Notes under the pieces: model-generated | Seen by the model: only the letters and a program-made list of their open reading frames with translations | What the model was told of the DNA's origin: nothing | Databases searched by the model: none | In this document: positions 2 to 62,980 of the stretch, in pieces | Numbering within the stretch: the first letter of the stretch is position 1 | Layout: every line of letters begins with the position of its first letter | Source: a virus | Taxonomy: Duplodnaviria; Caudoviricetes | IMG/VR virus record: IMGVR_UViG_3300031998_000051 | Span: 13,819 to 77,818 of that record | Reading direction: 5' to 3' (one strand) | DNA: 64,000 nt | Made by a program: the position numbers and the translations under genes

Positions 2-2983
2 GCTCAACTCAAAGAACTGAAGAAGAATAACGAGCAGACGCTGGCGGCAAAAAAGAAGTATCATGAAACAGAACTTGCGGTGCTGAAAAAGGCAAACACA
101 GATCAGCTCGCCGCATTGAAGGAACAGCAGAGTAATGCGCTCTCAGAGTTGAAAGAATCGCATTCAGCGCAGCTGGAAGCTCAAAAGGAAGCTAATTCAC
201 GGACATTGGAGCAGCTCAAAAAATCTAACGAGAAACAGTTGGAATCTTTGAAAGATGCTCATAGCACGGAATTGAAAAACCTAAAGGATTCCCAGTCCAA
301 TCAGCTGAAAGCGATGAAAGATTCGCATACCAATCAGCTTAATGCGGTAAAGGAATCGAACACTGCAAAGCTAAAGGCTCTTAAGGATTCACAGCAGAAA
401 TCCTTGAAGAACCTTAAACAGCACCATCAAGACCGACTGGCAGAAGTCAAGAAACAGAATGAGCGCGAGCTTAAAGAGCAGAAGGCAAAGCTGAAAGCGC
501 AAGCTGAAGCCGAAGCCGAGGGTATGTCTCTTCCGCAAGCAGCAATTGCGAAAGCTATCGGCGGCAAGCAAGGCATGGCGAGTGTTTATGCGATTGCTAA
601 TACAGATCAAGAGAAATGGGATTCTTACAAGGATTCTGTGAATTCGGCTGGCTTTTCTCTTTTGGATTTTTCCAAGAAAGCTGAAGAAGCCGGTTATTCC
701 ATAGATAGGATGAAACAGAATCTTGAAAAGTATGGAATAACCAGCGATGAATTCGAGACTGCTTTGAAGCGCAGCAATGGCAACGCCGAAGATTTCACTA
801 ATACACTCCTCGGTTTAGCTGATGAAGGAACGAATCTTGACGATATCATTTCTGACTTGGGCATTCCGATGGATAATCTGCAAGACATAATGGATAATAC
901 CAGCGGCGCAGCCGAAGGTATGAGCGACGTTATGCGCGATAATCTGAACGGTCAGTTGGAAATACTGAAATCGACCATTAACGGCATAAAAGAAGACGTC
1001 GGTAAAATCCTTATGCCGCTGGTTGAAAAAGTTGTCGCAAAGCTCCAGGCGGTTGCAAATTGGATTCATAATCTGGATGACAAAACGAAAAACCTTATTG
1101 TAACTGGCGCTGGTATTGTCGCAGCCATCGGACCGATTCTTGTGGTGGGCGGGAAGCTCAGTTCAAAGTTTGGAGGACTGCTGCAAAAAATCAGTGAAGG
1201 TAAAGGAATTATCGGCGGGCTGTTCACAAAGATGAAAAGCGGCGAAGGTGTTATTGGGATGCTTGGCGATAAATTCGCGGCGCTGGGTGCTGGGCCAATC
1301 GCGGGAATTGTAGCATCTATCGGTGTTCTGATTGCCGCTTTCGTCAACTTGTGGCAAAACAATGAGGAGTTCCGAGAAAAGATAACGGCCATCTGGGAGG
1401 GTCTCAAAACAAAGTTTGATGAATTCGGTCAACGAATCCTCGAAGGACTGAATAAAATGGGCTTTGACTTTGAGGACTTCGGTGAAGTCGTATCTGCGGC
1501 AATCGAAGGGTTAAAGACACTATGGAATGGGTTCTGTGAACTGCTTGCGCCAGTCTTTGAAGCTGCATTTGGACTTGTTTCAAGCGCTCTTGAATTAGCT
1601 CTCGATGTACTTGGCGATCTGTTCGAAGCGTTCACATCGCTGTTCTCCGGCGACTGGGAAGGCTTCTGGAATGGTATCGGGCAAATATTCACGGATTTGT
1701 GGGACGCGATTCAGCGAAATTTTCAGATCGTCATTGATGCTATAACCGGTATCATTGACGTGTTCCTTGGCTGGTTCGGGACAAGCTGGGAAGAAGTATT
1801 CGAGGGTGCAAAAACATTCATAGATGGCGTACTTTCCTCGATTGTGGGTTTCTTTGAGAATGCCATTGGTACAATCAAAAAAGCCTGGGAAGATGTGACC
1901 GGTTTTATTTCCCGGATAGGCGAAGAAGTATCAGAAAAGGCTACCACATTGTGGAATGGCATAAAGACAACCGTAACTGACACCGCACAAAAAGCTGTTG
2001 AGGGCGTAAAAGACTGGTGGGAAGGTATTCCCGGCTGGTTTGAAGGTAAATGGAATTCCATAAAAGAAAACGAGACGCTCAAAAAGGTCGGTGGAGCAAT
2101 AGAAGGATTCTTCAAAGACTCCTATAATGCTATCGCCGGTCCGAAAGGCGTCTGGACGAATGTCAGTGGCTGGTTTGAACAGCGCTGGAAAGATATAAAG
2201 GAAAACCAGACCTTGAAATCCCTCGGCGGTGCCATACAAGGATTCTTCAAAAGCCCATGGGATGCCATCACAGGACCGACAGGCATCTGGACAAATGTCA
2301 ATAGCTGGTTTGAGAAGAAGTGGAAAGCTATCGCAGAAAACAAAGAGCTTAAAGGCATTCTCGATGCCGTCACAAAGCCGTTTAAGAATGCTTATAACTT
2401 GATACTTGGTCAGGATGGCATTTTTGCAAAACTGAAGGAAGGCATCGAAAAAGTAATCGGAAAAATCAAAAGCATTTTTGATTTCAAATGGAGCTTTCCG
2501 AAGCCGAAGATGCCGCACTTCAATGTTTCATGGCACCAGGTAGGCCCGATTTCATTGCCAAGTGTTAGTGTCGAATGGTATAAGAAAGCTATGGACAACG
2601 CCATGCTTCTGACCAATCCGACCATATTCGGCATGATGGGTAATAAGCTGCTTGGAGGTGGCGAAGCAGGGAATGAGGTTGTCGCCGGTGCTGATAAGCT
2701 GATGTCGATGATCCAGTCTGCTGTTGCACAGACGATAGACCGGTCACGGTTTGCCGCCATGACGGTTGGCACCACGAATAGTTCCATGAACAGCCTTGCC
2801 GCAGGATCAGCCGATGATGCGACAGGGCGAACGATCATTGCAATGTTGTCCAGGTATCTGCCCTATCTGCCAGAGGTTGCCAACATGAAGATGGTGACTG
2901 ATACTGGCGTTCTGGTGGGACAACTTTCACCAGGGATCAACAAGCAGCTGGGCGTCATATCACAGCGGCAAAGGAGGCAGTGA
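2..2983 (+). CDS. Tail tape measure protein (5' truncated by window edge)
   Basis: Frame open from nt 2. 11-residue coiled-coil repeats, MRDNLNGQLEILKS TMP motif, hydrophobic and Trp-periodic repeats, C-terminal PKMPHF..W motif. Followed by Dit- and Tal-like genes. Confidence 0.92.
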   Translation, partial: AQLKELKKNNEQTLAAKKKYHETELAVLKKANTDQLAALKEQQSNALSELKESHSAQLEAQKEANSRTLEQLKKSNEKQLESLKDAHSTELKNLKDSQSNQLKAMKDSHTNQLNAVKESNTAKLKALKDSQQKSLKNLKQHHQDRLAEVKKQNERELKEQKAKLKAQAEAEAEGMSLPQAAIAKAIGGKQGMASVYAIANTDQEKWDSYKDSVNSAGFSLLDFSKKAEEAGYSIDRMKQNLEKYGITSDEFETALKRSNGNAEDFTNTLLGLADEGTNLDDIISDLGIPMDNLQDIMDNTSGAAEGMSDVMRDNLNGQLEILKSTINGIKEDVGKILMPLVEKVVAKLQAVANWIHNLDDKTKNLIVTGAGIVAAIGPILVVGGKLSSKFGGLLQKISEGKGIIGGLFTKMKSGEGVIGMLGDKFAALGAGPIAGIVASIGVLIAAFVNLWQNNEEFREKITAIWEGLKTKFDEFGQRILEGLNKMGFDFEDFGEVVSAAIEGLKTLWNGFCELLAPVFEAAFGLVSSALELALDVLGDLFEAFTSLFSGDWEGFWNGIGQIFTDLWDAIQRNFQIVIDAITGIIDVFLGWFGTSWEEVFEGAKTFIDGVLSSIVGFFENAIGTIKKAWEDVTGFISRIGEEVSEKATTLWNGIKTTVTDTAQKAVEGVKDWWEGIPGWFEGKWNSIKENETLKKVGGAIEGFFKDSYNAIAGPKGVWTNVSGWFEQRWKDIKENQTLKSLGGAIQGFFKSPWDAITGPTGIWTNVNSWFEKKWKAIAENKELKGILDAVTKPFKNAYNLILGQDGIFAKLKEGIEKVIGKIKSIFDFKWSFPKPKMPHFNVSWHQVGPISLPSVSVEWYKKAMDNAMLLTNPTIFGMMGNKLLGGGEAGNEVVAGADKLMSMIQSAVAQTIDRSRFAAMTVGTTNSSMNSLAAGSADDATGRTIIAMLSRYLPYLPEVANMKMVTDTGVLVGQLSPGINKQLGVISQRQRRQ

Positions 2984-20157: not shown

Positions 20158-21804
20158 TTAACAACCTACCGCCTCGGGAAAATACCAGGTAATCACAAAT
20201 CCAGAGGATGTAAGCGCTATTTTGTTATTGAGATTGCAGGTTAGCGCAAGGTCGGTGATGGTGTACCATCTTCGACTTACGCTAACCCTATCACCGTTAG
20301 CGGATTGCCCGGAATCTTCGGATTCCGGGTTTTCATTTTCCATGAGCCGAATTTCGAACATCTTCTTTTCTCCCGTGAAGTCCACGGACATAACGAAATG
20401 ATCCTTGTACAGATAAACAGCCCGCACAAAGTCGCGGATTATCATCCGTTGAAAATCCGGATCCTTATAGTCACCTTTGCGGATGGATTCCAGATAATCC
20501 ACCACCAAATCCCTGTCGATGTCCAGGGTGTTGTATTTCTCTATGGCGATCAGCCCTTCGAGCTTCTTCTTATCGGCCTGCAGCACTTCCATGCGCTCTT
20601 TGACCTCATCCGACATTATGCCCATTTCAATGGCGCGGATGATGTTGTCGATCTGTTTCTTGGTGGCGGTGAGCCGCTTTTCATATGTGGCCATTTTCGA
20701 CTTCGCATTGTACTTTTTGACGAAAACGACCATGTTGTCAGCGATCCAGTTCACCGTGGAATCATCCAGCACGCATTCAAGAACAGCCTTGGTAATCTCG
20801 GCTTCGATGTATTCCTTTGAAATGTTCGACTTTTCGCAGGCGTTCTGCGTCCGGCGCGTCTGGCAGGCATAGTAAAAATACTTGGTGCCAAGGTGTCCGG
20901 TCCCAGAGTAGCCCACCATTGCACCGCAGCAATAGCCACAGAACAGCTTCCCAGTCACAAGATAATCGTTATTCTCATGCCGCCTTGCACGAATAATCTT
21001 ATATTCGCCCAGCTTCTTTTTCGCCATTTCAAAATCACTCCGTTCTATGATCTGCGGCATACCGCCCTCGATGCGGATGTCATCATAAATATATGTCCCG
21101 GTATAGCGTTCGTTTTCAAGGATATTGTGAAACGAGTTTTTCTTCCATGGCTTTTTCTGCTTTGTCAGGACGCCACGGCTGTTCAACTCCCTGGCGATGT
21201 CGATGTACGTTTCATCATTGATAAACCGCCGGAAGATTTCAGCGACGATCTTTGCGGCTTCCTCATCCAGCGCATATCGCCCATCATCGCCCTTCTTATA
21301 GCCATACGGGATGGTGGAGACAACCTTGCACTTCTGGGCGCTGTCCCGGAGTCCGCGCCGGATGTCCTCGGCCATGTTCTCGGAATAGAACTGGTTCATG
21401 TTCATCATGGTGCGGAGCATGAACCGACCTGTGGCATTATCCTCGAATGCCTCTTTGCAATACACGACACGGACGCCAGCACGCGAAAGACGCTCCTCAT
21501 AGCGGAGAGCGTTGGTCATGTTGCGGCTGATGCGGTTGGACTTGTAAGCCAGGAGCACCTGGAACTCATGCCGATCAGCAGCGCGGAGCATCCGTTGAAG
21601 CCCTGGGCGGTTGTCCCTTTTGCCGGAGATTGCGCGATCTTCAAAGGTGGCGACTATTATCAATCCATGTTGTTTTGCGTAATCCTGGCACTCCGCGACC
21701 TGCTGCTCGATGCTGGCATCGTTCTGGACGGATGAAGAATACCGGGCATAGATTGCCGTGTTGAGTTGATCGAGTGCCTGTGTTTTCGTTTTTTTCATAG
21801 ACAT
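20158..21804 (-). CDS. int: Large serine recombinase (integrase)
   Basis: AIYARYSS catalytic motif, EDRAISG...RPGLQRM, SRISRN, PYGY recombinase domain, LVTGKLFCGYCCGAM and YYAC zinc ribbon, coiled coil. Confidence 0.95.
   Translation of the reverse strand: MSMKKTKTQALDQLNTAIYARYSSSVQNDASIEQQVAECQDYAKQHGLIIVATFEDRAISGKRDNRPGLQRMLRAADRHEFQVLLAYKSNRISRNMTNALRYEERLSRAGVRVVYCKEAFEDNATGRFMLRTMMNMNQFYSENMAEDIRRGLRDSAQKCKVVSTIPYGYKKGDDGRYALDEEAAKIVAEIFRRFINDETYIDIARELNSRGVLTKQKKPWKKNSFHNILENERYTGTYIYDDIRIEGGMPQIIERSDFEMAKKKLGEYKIIRARRHENNDYLVTGKLFCGYCCGAMVGYSGTGHLGTKYFYYACQTRRTQNACEKSNISKEYIEAEITKAVLECVLDDSTVNWIADNMVVFVKKYNAKSKMATYEKRLTATKKQIDNIIRAIEMGIMSDEVKERMEVLQADKKKLEGLIAIEKYNTLDIDRDLVVDYLESIRKGDYKDPDFQRMIIRDFVRAVYLYKDHFVMSVDFTGEKKMFEIRLMENENPESEDSGQSANGDRVSVSRRWYTITDLALTCNLNNKIALTSSGFVITWYFPEAVGC
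20239..20287. other. Candidate attP site
   Basis: 49-bp imperfect inverted repeat GGTTAGCGCAAGGTCGGTGATGGT-GT-ACCATCTTCGACTTACGCTAACC around a 2-bp core, the size and form of a serine-integrase attP; lies in the int 3' end. Confidence 0.7.
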
Positions 21805-21915
21805 CTTGCCTTTCGGTTTAATGTCTGCTATAATGAAATAGCAGACGATGAACTTGCCTTGTGAATCGGACTGTATAGCCTGCACCTGTGTGGCCGCACG
21901 GATGCGGGCGCTTTT

Positions 21916-22510: not shown

Positions 22511-23308
22511 TTATTCTTCTATGTAGTCGTAAAGCGTAATAGTGACCTTTGCGTAGTAGCCGATGGAATCGCGCTGGATGTCGCCATCCTCATCGAGCAT
22601 CTTGCTTTTGCCTCCCTTGATTTCTATATCGACATCCAGAATATCATCATTTTCTATCAGTTTTCTGACGTGGCTCACGCTGCCGCTTTTGATATAACCG
22701 ATATGCACATTATTCGCCATTACCTTAATGGCATAATTGCCGGTTTCGGCATTGTGTTCTTCTGGTACCAATTCAGCAGAAACTGAATCAAATTCATATT
22801 GGTAAACCCTTTCCCACGGTGAAAAGTTTTCTTTGAATTCTGATTTTGACAAATCATAATCATAATTATAGAGCCCAATGGATTGAATTTCACTTTGCCT
22901 AAATGAAACGCCAGCAACTTTATGATTCTCCGTTTTGTGCAGTCTTTTTGCGGGTGTCATTACTGCTGGTGCTGGCGTTGTTGTTGGCTTCGGTGTTGTC
23001 ATTTTTACACTGAATGTATATGATGGTGTCGGCGCAGGCGGCTCCGTGGGAACTGTTGTAGGTGTCTGCGGCGTGGAAGGTGTGAATGGTTCCATCTTGG
23101 GCTTTGGCTTCAGCTTTCTGGCAATGGTGCCACACAAACGCTTGATCGAGGTAATGAAAATCACCATCATGCCAAGCGCTCCAATCCCGGTTCCAGGATT
23201 GGAGTCTGGCGCAGAATTCTTGCTGATCATGTTCATGGCCATGCCAACGCACATAATCAGCAATCCGATTATGAATCCGCTCTTATACCATGGGCGTTTG
23301 ATTTTCAC
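22511..23308 (-). CDS. Membrane protein with Pro/Thr linker and HIRAN-like C-terminal domain
   Basis: Two TM helices, P/T-rich linker, HKVAGVSFR...LVPEEHN....AIKV....HIGYI. Start codon uncertain. Confidence 0.6.
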   Translation of the reverse strand: MKIKRPWYKSGFIIGLLIMCVGMAMNMISKNSAPDSNPGTGIGALGMMVIFITSIKRLCGTIARKLKPKPKMEPFTPSTPQTPTTVPTEPPAPTPSYTFSVKMTTPKPTTTPAPAVMTPAKRLHKTENHKVAGVSFRQSEIQSIGLYNYDYDLSKSEFKENFSPWERVYQYEFDSVSAELVPEEHNAETGNYAIKVMANNVHIGYIKSGSVSHVRKLIENDDILDVDIEIKGGKSKMLDEDGDIQRDSIGYYAKVTITLYDYIEE

Positions 23309-23429
23309 ATAGATCATCCTTTCTAACAAAATCCGTTAGACGCTTCCAAAGTCATATTCTGGTAGAATTTTTATGCTATAATCCTTCCAGCCACCGGTGA
23401 GCAAGATTATTCTATGGAGGTTGTTGCTT

Positions 23430-23564
23430 ATGGTTACTGACGCTGAATTGAATCTGGCGCTGTCTATTTTCCGGGCTCTGTCGCAGGAGAATCAGAAGAT
23501 TTTGCTTGATCTCTCAAGAGAGCTGCGGAAATTACAAGAAGAATATGCCGATTCTGATCGTTGA
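23430..23564 (+). CDS. 44-aa peptide antisense to the repressor 3' end (not in ORF track)
   Basis: Extended -10 TGCTATAAT (23374-23382), GGAGG RBS (23416-23420); MVTDAELNLALSIFRALSQENQKILLDLSRELRKLQEEYADSDR. Confidence 0.55.
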   Translation: MVTDAELNLALSIFRALSQENQKILLDLSRELRKLQEEYADSDR

Positions 23565-23856
23565 GTGCAGAGAAGTTATCTAAAAACTCCTGTTCAAAGA
23601 TCGTAAGCCCGCCCGATACGGTGGGCTTTTCTTCGTTCTGGTCAAGCAGTTCATCGGGATCTGCTTTTAAGAAATAGTCAAGCTCCATACCCAAAGCATC
23701 AGCAAACTGCTGGATCATCTGCAAATTCACCTTTTCATTATCTCTCTTGATAATAGAATAGATGGTGTTTTTGCTTATTCCAGTCATTGTTGCCAGTGTT
23801 CCAGGCTTTATTCCCTTCATCTTCAAAGCCTCTTCTAACTTTTTTCCGAGTGCCAT
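23464..23856 (-). CDS. CI-like XRE repressor
   Basis: N-terminal HTH (LATMTGISKNTIYSII...NLQMIQQFADALGMELDYF); divergent from a cro-like gene. Confidence 0.88.
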   Translation of the reverse strand: MALGKKLEEALKMKGIKPGTLATMTGISKNTIYSIIKRDNEKVNLQMIQQFADALGMELDYFLKADPDELLDQNEEKPTVSGGLTIFEQEFLDNFSALNDQNRHILLVISAALLRDQAKSSDSPATEPGK

Positions 23857-23892
23857 TTGATTTCACCTCCATACGAAATTTCTGTTACCTTT

Positions 23893-24010
23893 ATTATATA
23901 TGTCTTAACAAAAAATGTCAATGAAAAAATTTTGCATTTGCACAGATTTTCTATTGACAAGCACGCAAATTCGTGCTATTATTAGGTCACAAAGCACGCA
24001 AATGCGGGCT
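23893..24010. promoter_or_regulatory. Lysis/lysogeny switch: divergent promoters and operators
   Basis: Minus TTGACA(23921-23916)-17-TATAAT(23898-23893); plus TTGACA(23954)-17-TATTAT(23977). Quasi-palindrome AGCACGCAAATTCGTGCT in the plus spacer, repeated as AAGCACGCAAATGCGGGCTT at ~23992. Confidence 0.85.
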
Positions 24011-24036
24011 TTTGAACCGGTAAAGGAGGTGAAACA

Positions 24037-24249
24037 ATGTATCCGAATTTGGAAAGCGTCATGACGCTTAAGGGCATTACCTTAGAGAATTTTGCTGCCG
24101 CGCTTCACATTCACCGCAACACTGCAGCAAATAAGCTCAAGGGTGAGAGTGATTTCACTTACCCGGAAGCGATGATCATCTCGGAAGTTCTTTTTCCCGA
24201 GTATAAGGCGTCGTACCTGTTCAAACGGAAAGTCGAAGATGTAGGATAG
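24037..24249 (+). CDS. Cro-like HTH protein
   Basis: MYPNL...M...GIT....A.AL.IHRNT..NKL.G.SDFT..EA. Confidence 0.85.
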   Translation: MYPNLESVMTLKGITLENFAAALHIHRNTAANKLKGESDFTYPEAMIISEVLFPEYKASYLFKRKVEDVG

Positions 24250-24263
24250 GGAGATGAGTAGCA

Positions 24264-24449
24264 TTGGAATCAACGGCCACCAGCGGCGTGATCCGGCACG
24301 AGCTGATCCCGGAGCATACGCGCACGGACATCATGGAGGTAGTGTTCAAGGGCGTCACAGCCTACCAGCGTTACCTTCAAGAAAGCCCGGAGCGTATGCG
24401 GCAGTATCTGGAGCGAAAAGCCGAGCGGCAGAACGCTCAGCGCAAATGA
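24264..24449 (+). CDS. Hypothetical protein
   Basis: 61-aa ORF after cro with GGGAG RBS. Confidence 0.5.
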   Translation: MESTATSGVIRHELIPEHTRTDIMEVVFKGVTAYQRYLQESPERMRQYLERKAERQNAQRK

Positions 24450-24582
24450 AAGCGGCCCGCTGCTGGACATCAGCGAACCGCTCAGGTTAGAGAGATGAGC
24501 GTTAGGATTATCGGGCGATAACCTGTTGAAATGGCTCACCATTATTCTATATGATTTGCGGACTTTTGTCAAGGAGCGATTT

Positions 24583-24819
24583 ATGGCAAAGACCTATGAC
24601 GCCGTCGAAGCGGCGAAGGCGCAGGAGCATCACTGCAATGAGCGCAAGGTTCCGTTCTTTGCGCCGCGCAACGGCTGGTGCTGCTACTGCGGCAGGAACA
24701 TCTTCGAGCCGTATACCTACCGCCGGGAACCAATCCTGACCACAGGCATCAGCGTAGAAGAAGCCGGATCCCGCATCATTACCAGTTGCCCGCACTGCAA
24801 CCATACCTTCACAGATTGA
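24583..24819 (+). CDS. Hypothetical Zn-binding protein
   Basis: AAGGAG RBS; CCYCGRNIF...ITSCPHC. Confidence 0.65.
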   Translation: MAKTYDAVEAAKAQEHHCNERKVPFFAPRNGWCCYCGRNIFEPYTYRREPILTTGISVEEAGSRIITSCPHCNHTFTD

Positions 24820-24829
24820 GGATATCACA

Positions 24830-25435
24830 ATGATCTGGAACGAAGCGCCACAGGTGGGCTTCAATGAGAAGCGCCACCAGTACACCAAAGATGGATTGAT
24901 TCTTCCGAGCGTGACGCAGATCATGAAGCCGCTGACGCTTTCCGTTTACGATGGAACGCCCAGGCAGGCCATGAGCGATGCGGCAGACCGAGGAACGAAA
25001 GTCCATGCGGCAATCAGCGACCATGTGCTCTACGACATTCTGAAATATGATGATGAGATGGAGCTTTACGTTCGCGCATTCCTGGACTTCGAGAATCATT
25101 TCAAGCCCACATGGTTGGCGAGCGAGTGCAGGATACACCACAAGAATCTGGACTATGCCGGAACGATTGACCTGATCGGCTATGTAGAGCCGGATAACGG
25201 CAACGGCGTTGATGTGGTGGATCTGAAATGTACCGCACAAAACCACAAGATTCTGTTAGACACCCAGTTGGGAGCCTATGCGGAGGCCCTGAAAAGCCAT
25301 GATGTGAAGATTCGGAATTGCTATGGTCTACAGCTTTTGAAAACCGGCAAATATCGCTTCACCAAACAGGATCCAGTAAACGGCTTTATGCTGTTTCTGC
25401 ATTGCAGAGGACTTTACAACGCACTAAGGAGGTAG
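24830..25435 (+). CDS. PD-(D/E)XK (Cas4/RecB-like) phage exonuclease
   Basis: PSVTQI, RGTKVH, E.R.....YAGTIDLI, VVDLK, QLGAY. Confidence 0.8.
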   Translation: MIWNEAPQVGFNEKRHQYTKDGLILPSVTQIMKPLTLSVYDGTPRQAMSDAADRGTKVHAAISDHVLYDILKYDDEMELYVRAFLDFENHFKPTWLASECRIHHKNLDYAGTIDLIGYVEPDNGNGVDVVDLKCTAQNHKILLDTQLGAYAEALKSHDVKIRNCYGLQLLKTGKYRFTKQDPVNGFMLFLHCRGLYNALRR

Positions 25436-25440
25436 AGAAA

Positions 25441-26130
25441 ATGAGCGAATTGGCTGTAGTCAGCACGGACGCCAGCATCGAAGAGAAGTTGGAACAGTCC
25501 GGCGCGATGGCCATCAAGACCGCGAACGCCCTGGTCATTGACAACCAGGAATCTTATGAGGAAGGTGCCAAGTATCTGCGCGTGATCAAGGAACGCATCA
25601 AGCAGATCGGTGAATACTGGGCGGAGCCCAAGAAAGCCGCGCATCAGGCGCACCAGAACATCGTAGCCAAGGAAAAGGCCATGCTGGAACCCATGCAGAA
25701 GTCCGACAAGATCATCAACGAGAAGATGCGGGCTTATATGCGGGAACAGGAAGAGAAGCGCCGCAAGGCCGAAGCGGAAGCCAGGCGCAAGGCCGAGGAA
25801 GAAGCCAGACGCCTGCTGGATGAAGCCATCAAGGCCGAGGAGAATGGCGACGCACAGACAGCTGCCACCAATATGGCAATGGCAACGATGATCTCCGAGA
25901 CGCCCATTGCGCCGGTTGTGGAAACGCCGAAGGCGCAGGGCATCAACACTCGCAAGGTCTGGAAAGCCGAGGTCATGGATCCGGCAATCGTTCCGGCCTA
26001 TTACAACGGGATGGAGATCCGCGAAATCAATCAGTCGCAGCTGAACAAGATCGCCAGCTTGACGAAGGGCAGCGCGAGCATTCCTGGAGTGCGCTTCTTC
26101 GAGGATACCATTCTCGCAGTCAGGAGATGA
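25441..26130 (+). CDS. Coiled-coil phage protein of the recombination module
   Basis: Long helical region; C-terminal IPGVRFFE motif. Confidence 0.65.
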   Translation: MSELAVVSTDASIEEKLEQSGAMAIKTANALVIDNQESYEEGAKYLRVIKERIKQIGEYWAEPKKAAHQAHQNIVAKEKAMLEPMQKSDKIINEKMRAYMREQEEKRRKAEAEARRKAEEEARRLLDEAIKAEENGDAQTAATNMAMATMISETPIAPVVETPKAQGINTRKVWKAEVMDPAIVPAYYNGMEIREINQSQLNKIASLTKGSASIPGVRFFEDTILAVRR

Positions 26131-26504
26131 GCGCCATGGTAAATGTGATCTGCGATTACTGCGGCAAGCCTGCCGAGCTGGTAGACAGCATCATGGTTTA
26201 CCAGCACGACCACGGCAAGATCTGGTACTGCAAAGAGTGCCATGCGTGGGTAGGCGTTCACAGAGGCACGGAAAAGCCGTTCGGACGGCTTGCCAATGCT
26301 GAGCTTCGGCAGTGGAAGCGCAAGGCGCACCGCGCATTTGATCCCATCTGGCGCAACAAGGAAAGCACTACCCGCCGCGCCGCTTATGAGTGGCTGGCCG
26401 AGGAGATGGGATTGCCTGTCGAACAGGCCCACATCGGCATGATGGACATCGACCAGTGCAAAGAGGTCATCAGGATCTGCAAGGAGGCAATGAATAGGAA
26501 ATGA
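26127..26504 (+). CDS. DUF3268-like zinc-finger protein
   Basis: CDYCGKPAEL, YCKECHAWVGVHRGT..PFGRLAN..LR..K..AH..FD.IW, HIGM.D..QC. Confidence 0.8.
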   Translation: MSAMVNVICDYCGKPAELVDSIMVYQHDHGKIWYCKECHAWVGVHRGTEKPFGRLANAELRQWKRKAHRAFDPIWRNKESTTRRAAYEWLAEEMGLPVEQAHIGMMDIDQCKEVIRICKEAMNRK

Positions 26505-26755
26505 ACAAGGATTCGTACAAGACCAAGAATTCGTATAAGCCCAAGCCCAAGCGCGACAAGCACAAGGATGATCTGAAGGCCGCAATGCTGGTCAAGATGT
26601 CCGTGGAGCAGACCATCAGCGTGCCCATCGACGTTTACGACGGCCTAATCGCCAACACCGCACGACTGAACGTCCTGCGGAAGGTTCTGGAACGCGCCGA
26701 TGAATCCTACCAGACCAAGGCCATCATGAAGGCCATCCTGTTGCCGGAAGACTGA
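26501..26755 (+). CDS. Hypothetical protein
   Basis: 84-aa ORF overlapping the previous stop. Confidence 0.6.
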   Translation: MNKDSYKTKNSYKPKPKRDKHKDDLKAAMLVKMSVEQTISVPIDVYDGLIANTARLNVLRKVLERADESYQTKAIMKAILLPED

Positions 26756-26764
26756 CGCTTCCAA

Positions 26765-27001
26765 AGTTGGCATGACCGTGGACGGGTGCCAGCTCACTAC
26801 CAACCGCATGACTGTGATCAGATGCAGGTTGTCGACTTGATCGGTATGACCGTGGACGGGTACCGATTGCCAGGTAAACAGCATGGCCGTGGACGGGTGC
26901 TGCTGGCGCGTTTCAACCGCTGTTCACAAATGGCTGCTGACCGTGGACGGAGTAGTCGTGAACCGCAAATCCATCGCCGTTGACTGTGATCAGAACGGCG
27001 A
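26765..27001 (+). ncRNA. Array of six covarying hairpins (candidate structured RNA or ssDNA element)
   Basis: Different stems each enclose GACCGTGGACGG (x3, plus one GGCCGTGGACGG) or GACTGTGATCAG (x2); see findings. Confidence 0.7.
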
Positions 27002-27059
27002 GAAACCGACCGGGAATCATTAAGGCAAGCATCGACCGACGGAGCCGCAAAAGCTCAAA

Positions 27060-27301
27060 TTTGCAAGTTTCAAATCCAAAACTTGCAAAAATCGGCCACA
27101 AAATTTTTCACAACCGCTGGTATATATAGGTTGTGAATGCGAATTGAAGAATGAAGGATTTTTGCAACTGCAATTCACAAGTGATGGTTACCACCACACA
27201 GGGTAAGGGCTTAAATGCCCGCCCTTACCTGTGAAGTGGAAACCAGTAACCCGCGACGCCTGAGAATGGCGGTCATGAGCAGGTTGTGAATGGGTTGTGA
27301 A
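27060..27301. repeat. GGTTGTGAA repeats, palindromes and long hairpin (origin-like or regulatory)
   Basis: TTCACAACC 27107 (inverted), GGTTGTGAA 27129, 27282, 27293; palindrome TTTGCAAGTTT/AAACTTGCAAA; hairpin 27186-27251. Confidence 0.5.
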
Positions 27302-27329
27302 AAACAGAACGAGAAAAGGAGGTACCCGA

Positions 27330-28346
27330 ATGGGATTGAAGATCAGTTCCGGCAAAATCCCACGCGCTCAAAAGGTTGTGCTGTACGGCGTTGAAGGCAT
27401 CGGCAAAACAACTCTTGCGGCAAAGATGCCGGATCCGCTGTTTATCGACACCGAGGGCGGCACCGCCCACATGGATGTCAAGCGCATCGACGGAATCGGC
27501 TCATGGGAGCAGCTGATCGCAACAGTGGAGGAAGTCGCCGAAACACCCGGCGTTTGCAAAACGCTGGTGATTGACACCGCCGACTGGGCCGAGAAGGTTT
27601 GCATCGAATACCTTTTCGAAAAGAACAGCTGGACGAGCATTGAAACGCCCGGTTATGGCAAAGGCTACGTTGCGATTCGGGAGGAATTCATAAGGCTCCT
27701 GGACGCCTGTGACAAAGTCATCGCCGCAGGAATCAACGTGGTGATTACCGCCCATGCGAAGGTGAACAAAGTCGAACTTCCGGATGAGATGACGGCATAT
27801 GACCGCTGGGAACTCAAACTCACCAAGCAGACTGCGCCGCTATTGAAAGAATGGCCGGATGCGCTGCTGTTCGCCAACTACAAAACGCTGGTTGTGACTA
27901 CTGGCGACGGTCCGAACAAGACAGGCAAGGGCACCGGCGGCAAGCGCGTCATCTATACGACACACAAACCCGCATACGACGCCAAGAACCGTCACGGCCT
28001 GCCGGATGAAGTGGAGATGCGGTATTCCAATATCAAATCCATCTTCAACGATAATCCCGTGGTGATGGAATTACCGAAGAAGGAACCCAGCACACCTGCG
28101 CAGACCGTGGAGCCGCCCGCCGAGCCTATCAAGGAAGAAACGCTCGAAACCATCAACCAGATGATGAACGATGCTGGCGTCAGCGCCGAGGAAGTCCAGA
28201 GCGTAGTGGCAAAGAAGAGCGGCAAATTTGCTGCCGAGACGCCCATCTCTGAGTATTCCGAGAAGTTCGCCCAGAACTGGCTGATCAAGAACTGGCAGCG
28301 CGTGGTGAATACCATCGAGAACGACCCGAACCATGTACCTATCTGA
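27330..28346 (+). CDS. Sak4-like AAA ATPase recombinase (AAA_24)
   Basis: YGVEGIGKTTLA Walker A, LVIDTADW, VVITAH, AKNR.GLP. Confidence 0.85.
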   Translation: MGLKISSGKIPRAQKVVLYGVEGIGKTTLAAKMPDPLFIDTEGGTAHMDVKRIDGIGSWEQLIATVEEVAETPGVCKTLVIDTADWAEKVCIEYLFEKNSWTSIETPGYGKGYVAIREEFIRLLDACDKVIAAGINVVITAHAKVNKVELPDEMTAYDRWELKLTKQTAPLLKEWPDALLFANYKTLVVTTGDGPNKTGKGTGGKRVIYTTHKPAYDAKNRHGLPDEVEMRYSNIKSIFNDNPVVMELPKKEPSTPAQTVEPPAEPIKEETLETINQMMNDAGVSAEEVQSVVAKKSGKFAAETPISEYSEKFAQNWLIKNWQRVVNTIENDPNHVPI

Positions 28347-28362
28347 AAGGAGTTGAAATTCA

Positions 28363-28833
28363 ATGGCGAACAATGAAGCTTTGCTCGACTGGGATGACGT
28401 CTTGACGGAAGACGGTCAAGAATTTAACAGCTTGCCGGAAGGCGATTATACCTTCACGGTGACCAATTTCGAGCGCTCCTGGTATAAAGGCTCTGACAAG
28501 CTGCCGCCCTGCAATCAGGCCGAGATCACCGTGGAGATCGACAACAATATCGGCTACGCCATCAGCAAATTCAAGCTGCATATGGTGAAGCGCCTGGAAT
28601 GGAAACTGTCGGCTTTCTTCCGCTGCATCGGCCAGAAGAAGCACGGCGAACAGCTGAAACCCGACTGGAGCACCGTGGTAGGTTCTCGCGGCAAGGCGCA
28701 CTTCAAGCCGAGGAAAGGCACGAACACCGACAGCGACCGCACCTTCAACGAACTCGACAAGTTCTATGACTGGGATGAATCGGTCGGCATGAAGCCCGTC
28801 GGCGACGATGAGGATATGCCGTGGAATGACTGA
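28363..28833 (+). CDS. Single-stranded DNA-binding protein (DUF669-like)
   Basis: LPEGDYTFTV..FER pattern; acidic C-terminus DDEDMPWND; follows Sak4. Confidence 0.75.
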   Translation: MANNEALLDWDDVLTEDGQEFNSLPEGDYTFTVTNFERSWYKGSDKLPPCNQAEITVEIDNNIGYAISKFKLHMVKRLEWKLSAFFRCIGQKKHGEQLKPDWSTVVGSRGKAHFKPRKGTNTDSDRTFNELDKFYDWDESVGMKPVGDDEDMPWND

Positions 28834-34480: not shown

Positions 34481-35541
34481 GTAGGGCTCCGTTATAAAAA
34501 AGCCTGAGACATGGTAAGGATTGGCGGGTTGGAGTTAGGTATGGCGGCGAGGGTTATGGCAGTCGAGGATAGGCGCGGAAAGTTGCGGTTGCGCGGAGTA
34601 TGGCAAGGCACGGTATGGCAGTCTCGGAGGGGCACGTTAGTGCGCGGAGGGGCTTGCTCCGGATGCGAGGGGCTTGTCAAGGCAGTCTTGGAACGTTTCG
34701 GTTCGGTGCGTACAGGTGTTGCACGGTAAGGCTGGGCAGTCTTGGTTCGGTTAGGCATGGAGCTGTTAGTTCCGGCTTGATGAGGCAGTCGAGGATGGGT
34801 CAGGCGCGTAAACGGTGCGGCATGGTGCGGTCCGGCGCGGCAGTCGTGGACAGGAATGCAATGTCAATGTGAGTATAGGCATGATGCGGATCTGAACGGT
34901 GTGGCAGTAATGGATCGGTCAGTCGCGTAAAGGCGCGGCGGCGCACGGTTAGGCAGTCTCGGATGGGCAGTGCGATGTTACGGATGGTTCCGGCAATGTT
35001 CGGCTGGGCGCTGCAAGGCTTGGCAGTCTCGGATTGTTTCGGCGATGCTCGTTGAGGCAAAGCTGGGTATGGCAGTCTTGGAATGTCAGCGCGTGTTGAC
35101 GATTGCACCGGCGCGGCAGGAATGCCACGGGTTATGTAGGGCTCCCGGTCAACAAAAGCCCGAGACATGGAGAGTAGAGGCTGGTCTGTGTTTGGTATGG
35201 TTTGAAGAGGTATGGCAGTCGTGGACAGGAACGGATCGGTCAGTCCCGTATCGTTAAAGCAAGTAGGGTATCGGTTCGGTTTGGCAGTTAAGGACAGGAC
35301 AGGCTTGGAAGGTATGGTGGGTTTTGCATTGTATCGGATAGTTTTGTCATGGCAGTCAAGGCGAGGCGCGGAAGTGAGTGGCTTGTCGCGGATTCGCACG
35401 GAGTGTATCTGTGTGGCAGTTCTGGAAGCGATGGGTTAGGCTCGTACAGGCAAGGTAACGCGGGTTGTGGCAGCCGAGGATAGTTGCGGACGCGCCTGTC
35501 AAGTTGGTGCCTGGTGAGCCGTGTTGGGACAAGGCAGTCAC
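34481..35541 (+). ncRNA. Array of 17 pentamer-periodic (GGY-NN-like) units separated by GGCAGTC-NN, in two leader-headed sub-arrays
   Basis: GGCAG(T) junctions at 34558, 34617, 34681, 34735, 34784, 34839, 34903, 34952, 35022, 35071, 35115, 35214, 35283, 35351, 35415, 35469, 35533; 12 of 15 intervals equal 5n+4 nt. Confidence 0.88.
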
Positions 35542-62749: not shown

Positions 62750-62980
62750 CCACGATCCGGGCATCGGTGAAGCTGTGGGTTTTAAGAGCCCGGCACGCCT
62801 CTCAACGATGCGGACCACGCCGGGACATTTTATAGACCTGCCAGCGCCTCTGCTTGCATGCGTACCTTGGAGGCGGCTTCGGACGTTGAGCCTGTCAGCG
62901 TTCACCAATTGTATCCGTGATACCTACGGGCCACGGGTCAACCTGGCGGCTATGGTGTGCACACTGTACCGCCTTTTTTC
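62750..62980 (+). ncRNA. Candidate structured intergenic RNA ending in a terminator
   Basis: Several stems (CCGGGC/GCCCGG, GCCTC/GAGGC, CCGTG/CACGG) and GGCGG...CCGCC-TTTTTT. Confidence 0.35.

Follow-up and report, generated by a model that had tools for sequence, protein, structure and literature searches.

A conserved, strand-specific array of hairpins with a fixed head beside the early genes of a prophage-like genome

Between the last early gene and the replication operon of a prophage-like genome from the rumen lies a gap of 574 nt (26756-27329), the first 240 nt of which are occupied by hairpins. The question is what this array is, whether it acts as RNA or as DNA and what might read it. 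We studied it within a window of 64,000 nt, i.e. the whole stretch of DNA that was analysed, which is part of an IMG/VR virus record of 77.8 kb. The public runs containing the stretch are bovine and goat gut metagenomes. The features of the window that are needed to place the array are the following:

20158-21885, minus strand: serine integrase
23464-23856, minus strand: CI-like HTH gene
about 23900-23980: divergent consensus promoters, with the early rightward promoter at 23954-23982
26127-26504, plus strand: DUF3268 gene (Pfam E=1.8e-43)
26501-26755, plus strand: 84-aa ORF with a Lys-rich N-terminus
27002-27059, plus strand: C/A-rich, G-poor and variable spacer from the array to the Sak4 promoter region
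27107-27137, plus strand: promoter-like region of the Sak4 operon, with an extended -10 TGGTATATA (27118-27126)
27330-28346, plus strand: Sak4-like AAA_24 annealing protein, first gene of the replication/recombination operon

On the plus strand the early order is a Cro-like HTH gene, small ORFs, two exonuclease genes (a PD-(D/E)XK nuclease and a phrog_10477 exonuclease), the DUF3268 gene, the 84-aa ORF and the array, which begins 9 nt past the stop of the 84-aa ORF, the last of the early ORFs. The preliminary description had placed the hairpins one gene downstream of a DUF3268-like zinc finger gene, and the Pfam match bears this out. The structure model of the DUF3268 protein (pLDDT 88) has an N-terminal zinc ribbon and a three-helix domain, and a fold search with this model returned no significant match; the model of the 84-aa ORF reached a pLDDT of 57. 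The Sak4 gene is followed by phrog_2698, a DEAD/ResIII helicase, a PriCT_2/AAA_25 primase-helicase and, further on, RusA. No terminator-like site was found on the plus strand between the early promoter (23954-23982) and the array. The simplest reading of this arrangement is that the array forms the 3' part of the early transcript, which would run rightward from about 23950 through the Cro-like gene, the exonuclease genes, DUF3268 and the 84-aa ORF into the hairpins.

Six tandem hairpins had been reported for 26765-27001. A direct check of the sequence found all six on the plus strand with coordinates and letters correct, and the minimum free energy (MFE) fold of 26756-27010 (plus strand) recovered each of them with the proposed geometry, in which the lower stem carries a 5' bulge of 2 nt, an upper stem of 3 bp and a tetraloop. 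The units are as follows:

hairpin 1, 26765-26794, plus strand: 9-bp lower stem (two G-U), GA bulge, CCG/CGG, UGGA loop
hairpin 2, 26801-26831, plus strand: GCAU/AUGC stem, GA bulge, CUG/CAG, UGAU loop
hairpin 3, 26839-26868, plus strand: 9-bp lower stem, GA bulge, CCG/CGG, UGGA loop
hairpin 4, 26869-26907, plus strand: CAGCAU/GUGCUG stem, GG bulge, CCG/CGG, UGGA loop
hairpin 5, 26930-26959, plus strand: 9-bp G-U-rich lower stem, GA bulge, CCG/CGG, UGGA loop
hairpin 6, 26974-27001, plus strand: 8-bp lower stem, GA bulge, CUG/CAG, UGAU loop

All six kept this geometry when folded alone, at -9 to -14.9 kcal/mol each, and a covariance model of the single hairpin (R1) scored about 30-35 bits on every hairpin of the array. 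The values were -14.9 kcal/mol and 34.8 bits for hairpin 1, -13.6 kcal/mol and 35.5 bits for hairpin 3 and -13.4 kcal/mol and 33.5 bits for hairpin 6. Hairpin 2 (-10.9 kcal/mol, 30.6 bits) has its stem lengthened by AACC/GGUU over a bulged A. The core of hairpin 4 folds at -9.0 kcal/mol (32.8 bits), and in the fold of the window it gains GCCAG/CUGGC beyond an internal loop that contains the strain variant 26874. Hairpin 5 folds on the plus strand only, at -11.9 kcal/mol compared to -3.5 kcal/mol for a misfolded structure on the minus strand. The fixed head that had been proposed, a G(A/G) bulge with a 3-bp stem and a UGGA or UGAU loop, is present in all six hairpins of the window.

A second array was found in a related contig, L009, whose Sak4 protein is 66% and whose DUF3268 protein is 53% identical to that of the window, while its 84-aa ORF is alike over 28 residues only. 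The gene order is shared and five hairpins of the same design stand at the equivalent position. Only the first hairpin is recognisably orthologous (hairpin 1 aligns with the first unit, r1, of L009); the other stems and the linkers differ. The loops are UGGA (four times) and UGAU (twice) in the window and UGAA (twice), UGAU (twice) and UGGA (once) in L009. The units are spaced by 36-54 nt in the window, with 36-38 nt for the first four, and by about 50-57 nt in L009, and this variable spacing fits separate sites, not one compact fold. What the units have in common is a head of only 14 nt, and the stems differ from unit to unit. We rejected coding sequence as an explanation, as there is no conserved ORF common to both arrays. 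The AACCGC-like linkers of the preliminary description do recur, with four copies on the plus strand in 26802-27117; they are not kept in the L009 array, however, and hence the linker word carries little weight.

In order to evaluate the pairing we aligned 12 hairpins, namely six from the window, five from L009 and one strain variant. Pairing was found in 95.5% of the cells compared to 63.1% in shuffles, and none of 500 shuffles reached the observed value, where the kinship of the 12 hairpins is ignored. In L009 four of the five hairpins form two recently duplicated pairs, which leaves fewer than 12 independent comparisons. Of the 11 pairs of the alignment nine have changed at both partners, and when the partner columns are shifted by 1-3 positions the pairing falls to 29-51%. 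The stems had been said to differ and yet to pair throughout by covariation, and a lack of stem covariation in homologs had been named as evidence against the structure; the L009 array keeps its pairing with other stems. With its pairs kept via compensatory changes, the array is a candidate structured RNA motif in the general sense.

The head itself is the constant part. The 12-nt pattern GRCYGTGRWCRG occurs in six copies on the plus strand within 220 nt and in one copy elsewhere on the minus strand of the 64-kb window. The expectation is 0.26 per window and none of 100 shuffles reached seven copies; the whole 77.8-kb record holds no further copy. Across the 12 aligned hairpins six positions are invariant (U8, G9, G13, U14, G15 and C18), whereas stems and linkers diverge. 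They comprise the U closing the lower stem, the first G of the bulge, both bases of the loop-closing G-C pair and the U and G of the loop itself. The closing U pairs with either G or A, and the consensus of the head reads U-G(N)-YYG-UGRW-CRR-R. As the six positions stay fixed while the stems and linkers around them diverge, we count them in favour of a head that is read by its sequence.

The pairing also has a clear strand preference. G-U pairs occupy 17 of the 132 cells, and on the opposite strand they turn into A-C mismatches. Summed over the six hairpins of the window the folding energy is -73.7 kcal/mol for the plus strand compared to -56.4 kcal/mol for the minus strand, and for the five hairpins of L009 it is -75.2 compared to -55.6 kcal/mol. 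In both arrays the better-folding strand is the sense strand of the flanking genes. The strand asymmetry of the preliminary description holds. G-T pairs are tolerated in single-stranded DNA as well, so that the strand asymmetry alone cannot tell RNA from plus-strand single-stranded DNA. We conclude that the array is a real, conserved and strand-specific structured element of a design that is not catalogued in Rfam.

Strains of the same phage gave a further view of the constraint. We compared contigs from four other gut metagenomes, which are 90-99% alike, over 26450-27350 and counted the variable sites:

hairpin array, 237 nt: 3 variable sites
84-aa ORF, 255 nt: 14 variable sites
spacer after the array, 59 nt: 12 variable sites
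promoter and 5'UTR, 290 nt: 8 variable sites

For the array against all flanks the Fisher test gave p=0.004, or 0.07 in the worst case that three unlisted variants all fall in the array. The three variants of the array are one in an internal loop (26874), one that turns a G-U into an A-U pair (26933 G>A in hairpin 5, also seen in contig L008) and one that weakens an outer pair. We take the small number of variable sites in the array as purifying selection among strains.

To see how widely the array occurs we searched around relatives of both flanking genes. Near-identical arrays were found in three short ENA contigs (L008, L170 and L171), with a Sak4 protein that is 96% identical in L008. Two contigs with 64-65% identical Sak4 proteins (L172 and L173) share the palindrome, the promoter-like region and the 5'UTR hairpin with the window and have no array; a further contig (ERZ1029111, whose Sak4 protein P0002 is 69% identical) has the same gene order with a gap of 617 nt. 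Sak4 relatives of at most 57% identity led to 80 IMG/VR loci and 80 GTDB genome loci, and neither a purpose-written finder nor R1 detected an array hairpin in these 160 loci. Above 15 bits R1 had no match in the roughly 1 Mb around the 160 Sak4 relatives and 11 DUF3268 relatives, or elsewhere in the window. The 11 DUF3268 loci (70-75% identity) contain DUF3268 and the small ORF and lack both a long intergenic region and an array, as in these phages the small ORF is directly followed by the next gene. Members of the 84-aa ORF family thus also follow DUF3268 in phages that have no array. R1 run on 146 Clostridia genomes matched only singly, within coding regions and never in clusters, and thus gives no hint that the head was copied from a housekeeping RNA.

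Pattern searches in larger collections did not extend the distribution. A degenerate three-head pattern run on IMG/VR gave chance matches only, among the matches listed; a stricter pattern gave four viral loci in IMG/VR, none above 16 bits by the model, and 38 loci in JGI metagenomes, none of them convincing. We rejected two of these loci as high-GC coding-like repeats (L306 and L328), one from brine as a near-identical 26-nt tandem repeat with a U-GU-CCG-UGAU-CGG-A hairpin (L326) and two from rumen as a near-identical 51-nt tandem repeat with a CCGTGGACGG core (L316 and L339). These repeats are near-identical and were picked by the pattern itself, and hence we do not count them as relatives. 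The brine repeat (L326, 12153-12317, minus strand) has 6.3 copies and stands upstream of an unannotated ORF and a signal-peptide peptidase gene; its match to the head may be due to chance, as the pattern selected for the head, or it may be a distant analogue. The rumen repeat (L316, 3436-3781; L339, about 1120-1500, minus strand) has 6.8 copies with an upstream inverted copy of CGTCCAC and a strong terminator before it, and with a unit of 51 nt, a multiple of three, it may be coding.

Among the loci searched the array is thus known from two independent lineages only. The distribution points to a rare, lineage-specific insertion of about 250 nt, without a tie to the Sak4 promoter or to DUF3268 and its small neighbour ORF. 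Close relatives share the Sak4 promoter and have no array, which makes the array look like a lineage-specific accessory.

The region between the array and the Sak4 gene has signals of its own. The extended -10 TGGTATATA is flanked by an inverted repeat TTCACAACC / GGTTGTGAA, the half-sites of which co-vary in L009 (TTCGCCACC/GGTGGTGAA, at about 2770-2800), and we read 27107-27137 as the putative promoter and operator of the Sak4 operon. Downstream of the array the sequence turns AT-rich, and this stretch contains a perfect palindrome of 11 bp and recurring GGTTGTGAA boxes; additional boxes of this kind were seen at 27282-27300. Contigs from other gut metagenomes match just 27104-27144 with unlike flanks, which places the promoter-operator core in other contexts too. 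The Sak4 leader contains a long hairpin (27191-27240 in the window, 2850-2897 in L009, also present in L172 and L173) that is topped by a conserved GGCUUAAA(A/U)GCC, with an additional base on its 3' side. Compensating changes in the stem are seen in four phages, the array-less ones included, and the hairpin is probably a cis-regulatory RNA of the Sak4 operon in its own right.

We then compared the array to known RNA families. Rfam 15 at gathering thresholds reported a single match across the whole window, an abiF RNA at 62789. Relaxed searches of both strands (26500-27400 at E<=10 and 23300-28500 at E<=1) yielded chance-level matches to eukaryotic or unrelated models only, and at E<=1 nothing was found in the array in L009, L008, L296, L299 and L302. 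In contig L296, which comes from an unrelated DUF3268 phage, a type II hammerhead ribozyme was seen in the early region (82-147; RF02276, 44.4 bits, E=3e-6). The array does not correspond to the mini-ykkC, pan, STAXI or DUF3268 motifs of Rfam 15. The last of these had been named in the preliminary description as a candidate; it is named after the same neighbouring gene family, but it did not match in the window, in L009 or in three other DUF3268 loci at E<=1 to 10, i.e. in the window or four other DUF3268 loci. Its architecture differs as well, since the DUF3268 RNA motif is a k-junction RNA according to PMC10573300. The literature searches yielded nothing relevant besides the k-junction papers that name this motif.

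Several other identities were considered and rejected. Palindromes of the REP/BIME type do not fit, as there is no other copy in the 77.8-kb record or in the roughly 1 Mb of loci and there are no clusters in the 146 Clostridia genomes. For an intrinsic terminator we found no terminator-like site on the plus strand in 26400-27300 and no U-run after any of the six hairpins; in L009 a run of six Us starts 9 nt past the last hairpin, which is non-canonical for a terminator. A CRISPR array or a set of RNA anti-CRISPR units was dismissed on account of differing stems, of no significant match to an Rfam CRISPR-DR model in the array and of no adjacent cas gene.

Of the systems that the array resembles, the CsrB/RsmZ sponges, which work by multivalent binding of one protein, come close in having many hairpins per RNA with the same loop motif, differing stems and variable spacing. 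Unlike them, the array directly follows an ORF and does not form an sRNA gene by itself. A CsrA site requires GGA within its loop, and a CsrA/RsmA sponge was rejected because GGA is found in only 5 of 11 loops and is not conserved. The operators of MS2 and PP7 share the lower stem, the 5' bulged purine, the short upper stem, the small loop with fixed bases and the free stem sequence. Each of them, however, occurs once in its RNA phage genome and overlaps a start codon, whereas the array puts six sites into a dsDNA prophage, each with a bulged G, three base pairs in the upper stem and UGRW as its loop, and we know of no coat-like binder for it. The nut sites of lambda also place a small hairpin in an early operon downstream of early genes, here with a small basic ORF just upstream, and the boxB hairpin is read by a peptide. 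In contrast to the six copies of the array, boxB consists of one bulge-free stem of 5 bp under a GNRA-like pentaloop, and the array has neither a boxA-like conserved linker nor an evident downstream terminator. We therefore rejected a lambda nut: a tetraloop and a bulge take the place of the boxB design, the linker word is not kept in L009 and no terminator was found.

The mini-ykkC/guanidine-II and pan motifs repeat a simple hairpin in which the stem varies and loop or bulge bases are conserved. In mini-ykkC the tandem hairpins vary in their stems and keep their tetraloops together with the G-C pairs that close them, and for pan a dimeric protein binder has been proposed. These motifs have two copies in 5' leaders, and their head sequence differs from that of the array. 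Antitoxin RNAs of the ToxI type are likewise tandem units, of about 36 nt, in a phage or phage-defence locus, and phage-borne mimics of type III antitoxin RNAs are known. ToxI repeats are near-identical direct repeats that form pseudoknots upstream of a toxin gene, whereas the array has no adjacent toxin gene and only the 14-nt head is common to its units. A type III toxin-antitoxin array was thus rejected, as the units share the head only and the next genes are Sak4, phrog_2698 and the helicase. On present evidence the array does not amount to a new class of system.

A hairpin whose lower stem varies freely, and which has a bulged purine, a short upper stem and fixed bases in a small loop, is of the classic protein-recognised kind, as in MS2, PP7, boxB and TAR, the latter two being bound by basic peptides. 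With this shape repeated five to six times at variable spacing, as in CsrB and RsmZ, we read the array as a multivalent RNA platform or sponge for one putative head-reading protein, a tentative choice to which we give slightly less than an even chance. Every hairpin would offer one and the same small surface for recognition on a stem whose sequence is free, i.e. a U paired with G or A, a 5' bulged G (with an optional second base), a 3-bp stem closed by G-C and a UGRW loop. Several copies, or an oligomer, of one RNA-binding protein would then bind the heads multivalently, and the platform or sponge would either titrate this protein or control the fate of the early transcript at the separately promoted Sak4-helicase-primase operon. 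As relatives with the same downstream promoter lack the array, we lean towards an accessory role, such as titrating a host or phage factor or tuning early-transcript fate, and regard an essential antitermination or origin function as less likely. The version in which a neighbouring protein is the binder is weakened, since DUF3268 and the 84-aa ORF are common elsewhere without the array. A more specific version is possible but unlikely in our view: the array may be a multivalent phage RNA decoy, accessory and patchy in its distribution, that soaks up a host hairpin-binding protein early in infection, and its target would be an immune sensor or effector or a global RNA regulator.

The other readings have to explain the same head, strand and location. 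If the plus strand acted as single-stranded DNA, the hairpins would form when the DNA is unwound or resected and would serve replication or recombination, for instance by marking where the PriCT_2/AAA_25 primase-helicase primes or where a helicase is loaded, or by belonging to an origin with the AT-rich palindromic region. The array does lie within a recombination/replication module, with PD-(D/E)XK exonucleases on one side and Sak4, the helicase and the primase-helicase on the other; the AT-rich stretch, the 11-bp palindrome and the GGTTGTGAA boxes follow it, and G-T wobbles and one-stranded hairpins are compatible with single-stranded DNA. We nevertheless consider this improbable. Relatives have the same Sak4 gene, promoter region and palindrome without the array, which is hence not core to the region, and a candidate iteron array of 1 kb about 2 kb downstream of the primase-helicase gene is more origin-like. 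Moreover the favoured strand is the sense strand of a continuous operon, for which RNA needs no extra assumptions. We grant a similarly low probability to an element that acts at the 3' end by structure only and has no specific partner, blocking 3'-to-5' exonucleases or pausing or insulating transcription. The position of the array, last in the early unit and right ahead of an operon with its own promoter, the moderate stability of -9 to -15 kcal/mol per hairpin and the C/A-rich, G-poor spacer that comes next would all suit it. A purely thermodynamic role would not need six invariant head positions that include the bulge and the loop, though, and six copies exceed what protection of a 3' end requires. 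To our knowledge UGRW is not among the classic extra-stable tetraloop families, which together with the missing U-tract after every hairpin of the window argues against such an element.

Very improbable, by comparison, is a tandem sensor of a small ligand in the style of mini-ykkC/guanidine-II, or a precursor that is cut into small hairpin RNAs. The architecture resembles the tandem hairpins of mini-ykkC, and the 36-38 nt spacing of the first four units resembles processed repeat RNAs, but Rfam gave no match, the array stands downstream of genes and not in a 5' leader, and it has six copies, not two. We also found no adjacent nuclease or toxin gene, and the units are not near-identical, unlike antitoxin or CRISPR repeats. 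We give about as little credit to the idea that the heads (12-14 bp) are iterons or operators read as double-stranded DNA, or that the array is a functionless decaying repeat, even if six copies of 12 nt in the same orientation, intergenic and beside a regulated promoter, would suit such sites. Arms that differ and remain complementary, compensatory changes and strand-specific G-U pairs are unexpected for duplex sites, and decay is at odds with the low variability among strains and with an array retained at the same place in a lineage with 66% Sak4 identity.

For the platform or sponge, the pairing and the six head positions that were kept despite free divergence would map what a partner reads. 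They give a ready bait for pull-downs and a clean design for mutants, and the array is worth following up at the bench because the sequence already tells which bases to mutate. If a partner is found, it would define a new RNA-protein recognition module in phages infecting uncultured rumen Clostridia and possibly a new RNA-based regulatory or counter-defence device, with a generality that is limited by the two lineages so far. The decoy, if true, would be an RNA counterpart of the protein anti-defence sponges with a recognition head not described before.

Two further non-coding elements were observed in the window. Between the phrog_15946 gene and RusA, downstream of the primase-helicase gene, lies the non-coding array of 1 kb mentioned above (34513-35541), with about 17 units ending in GGCAGTC-NN-GGA and a strong skew of G over C. 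It is a candidate for an origin or iteron region or for a long ncRNA. The abiF RNA motif (62789-62825; RF03085) stands near the right end of the window with 37.3 bits, which equals the gathering score, and suggests an AbiF-type abortive-infection locus beside or at the end of the prophage.
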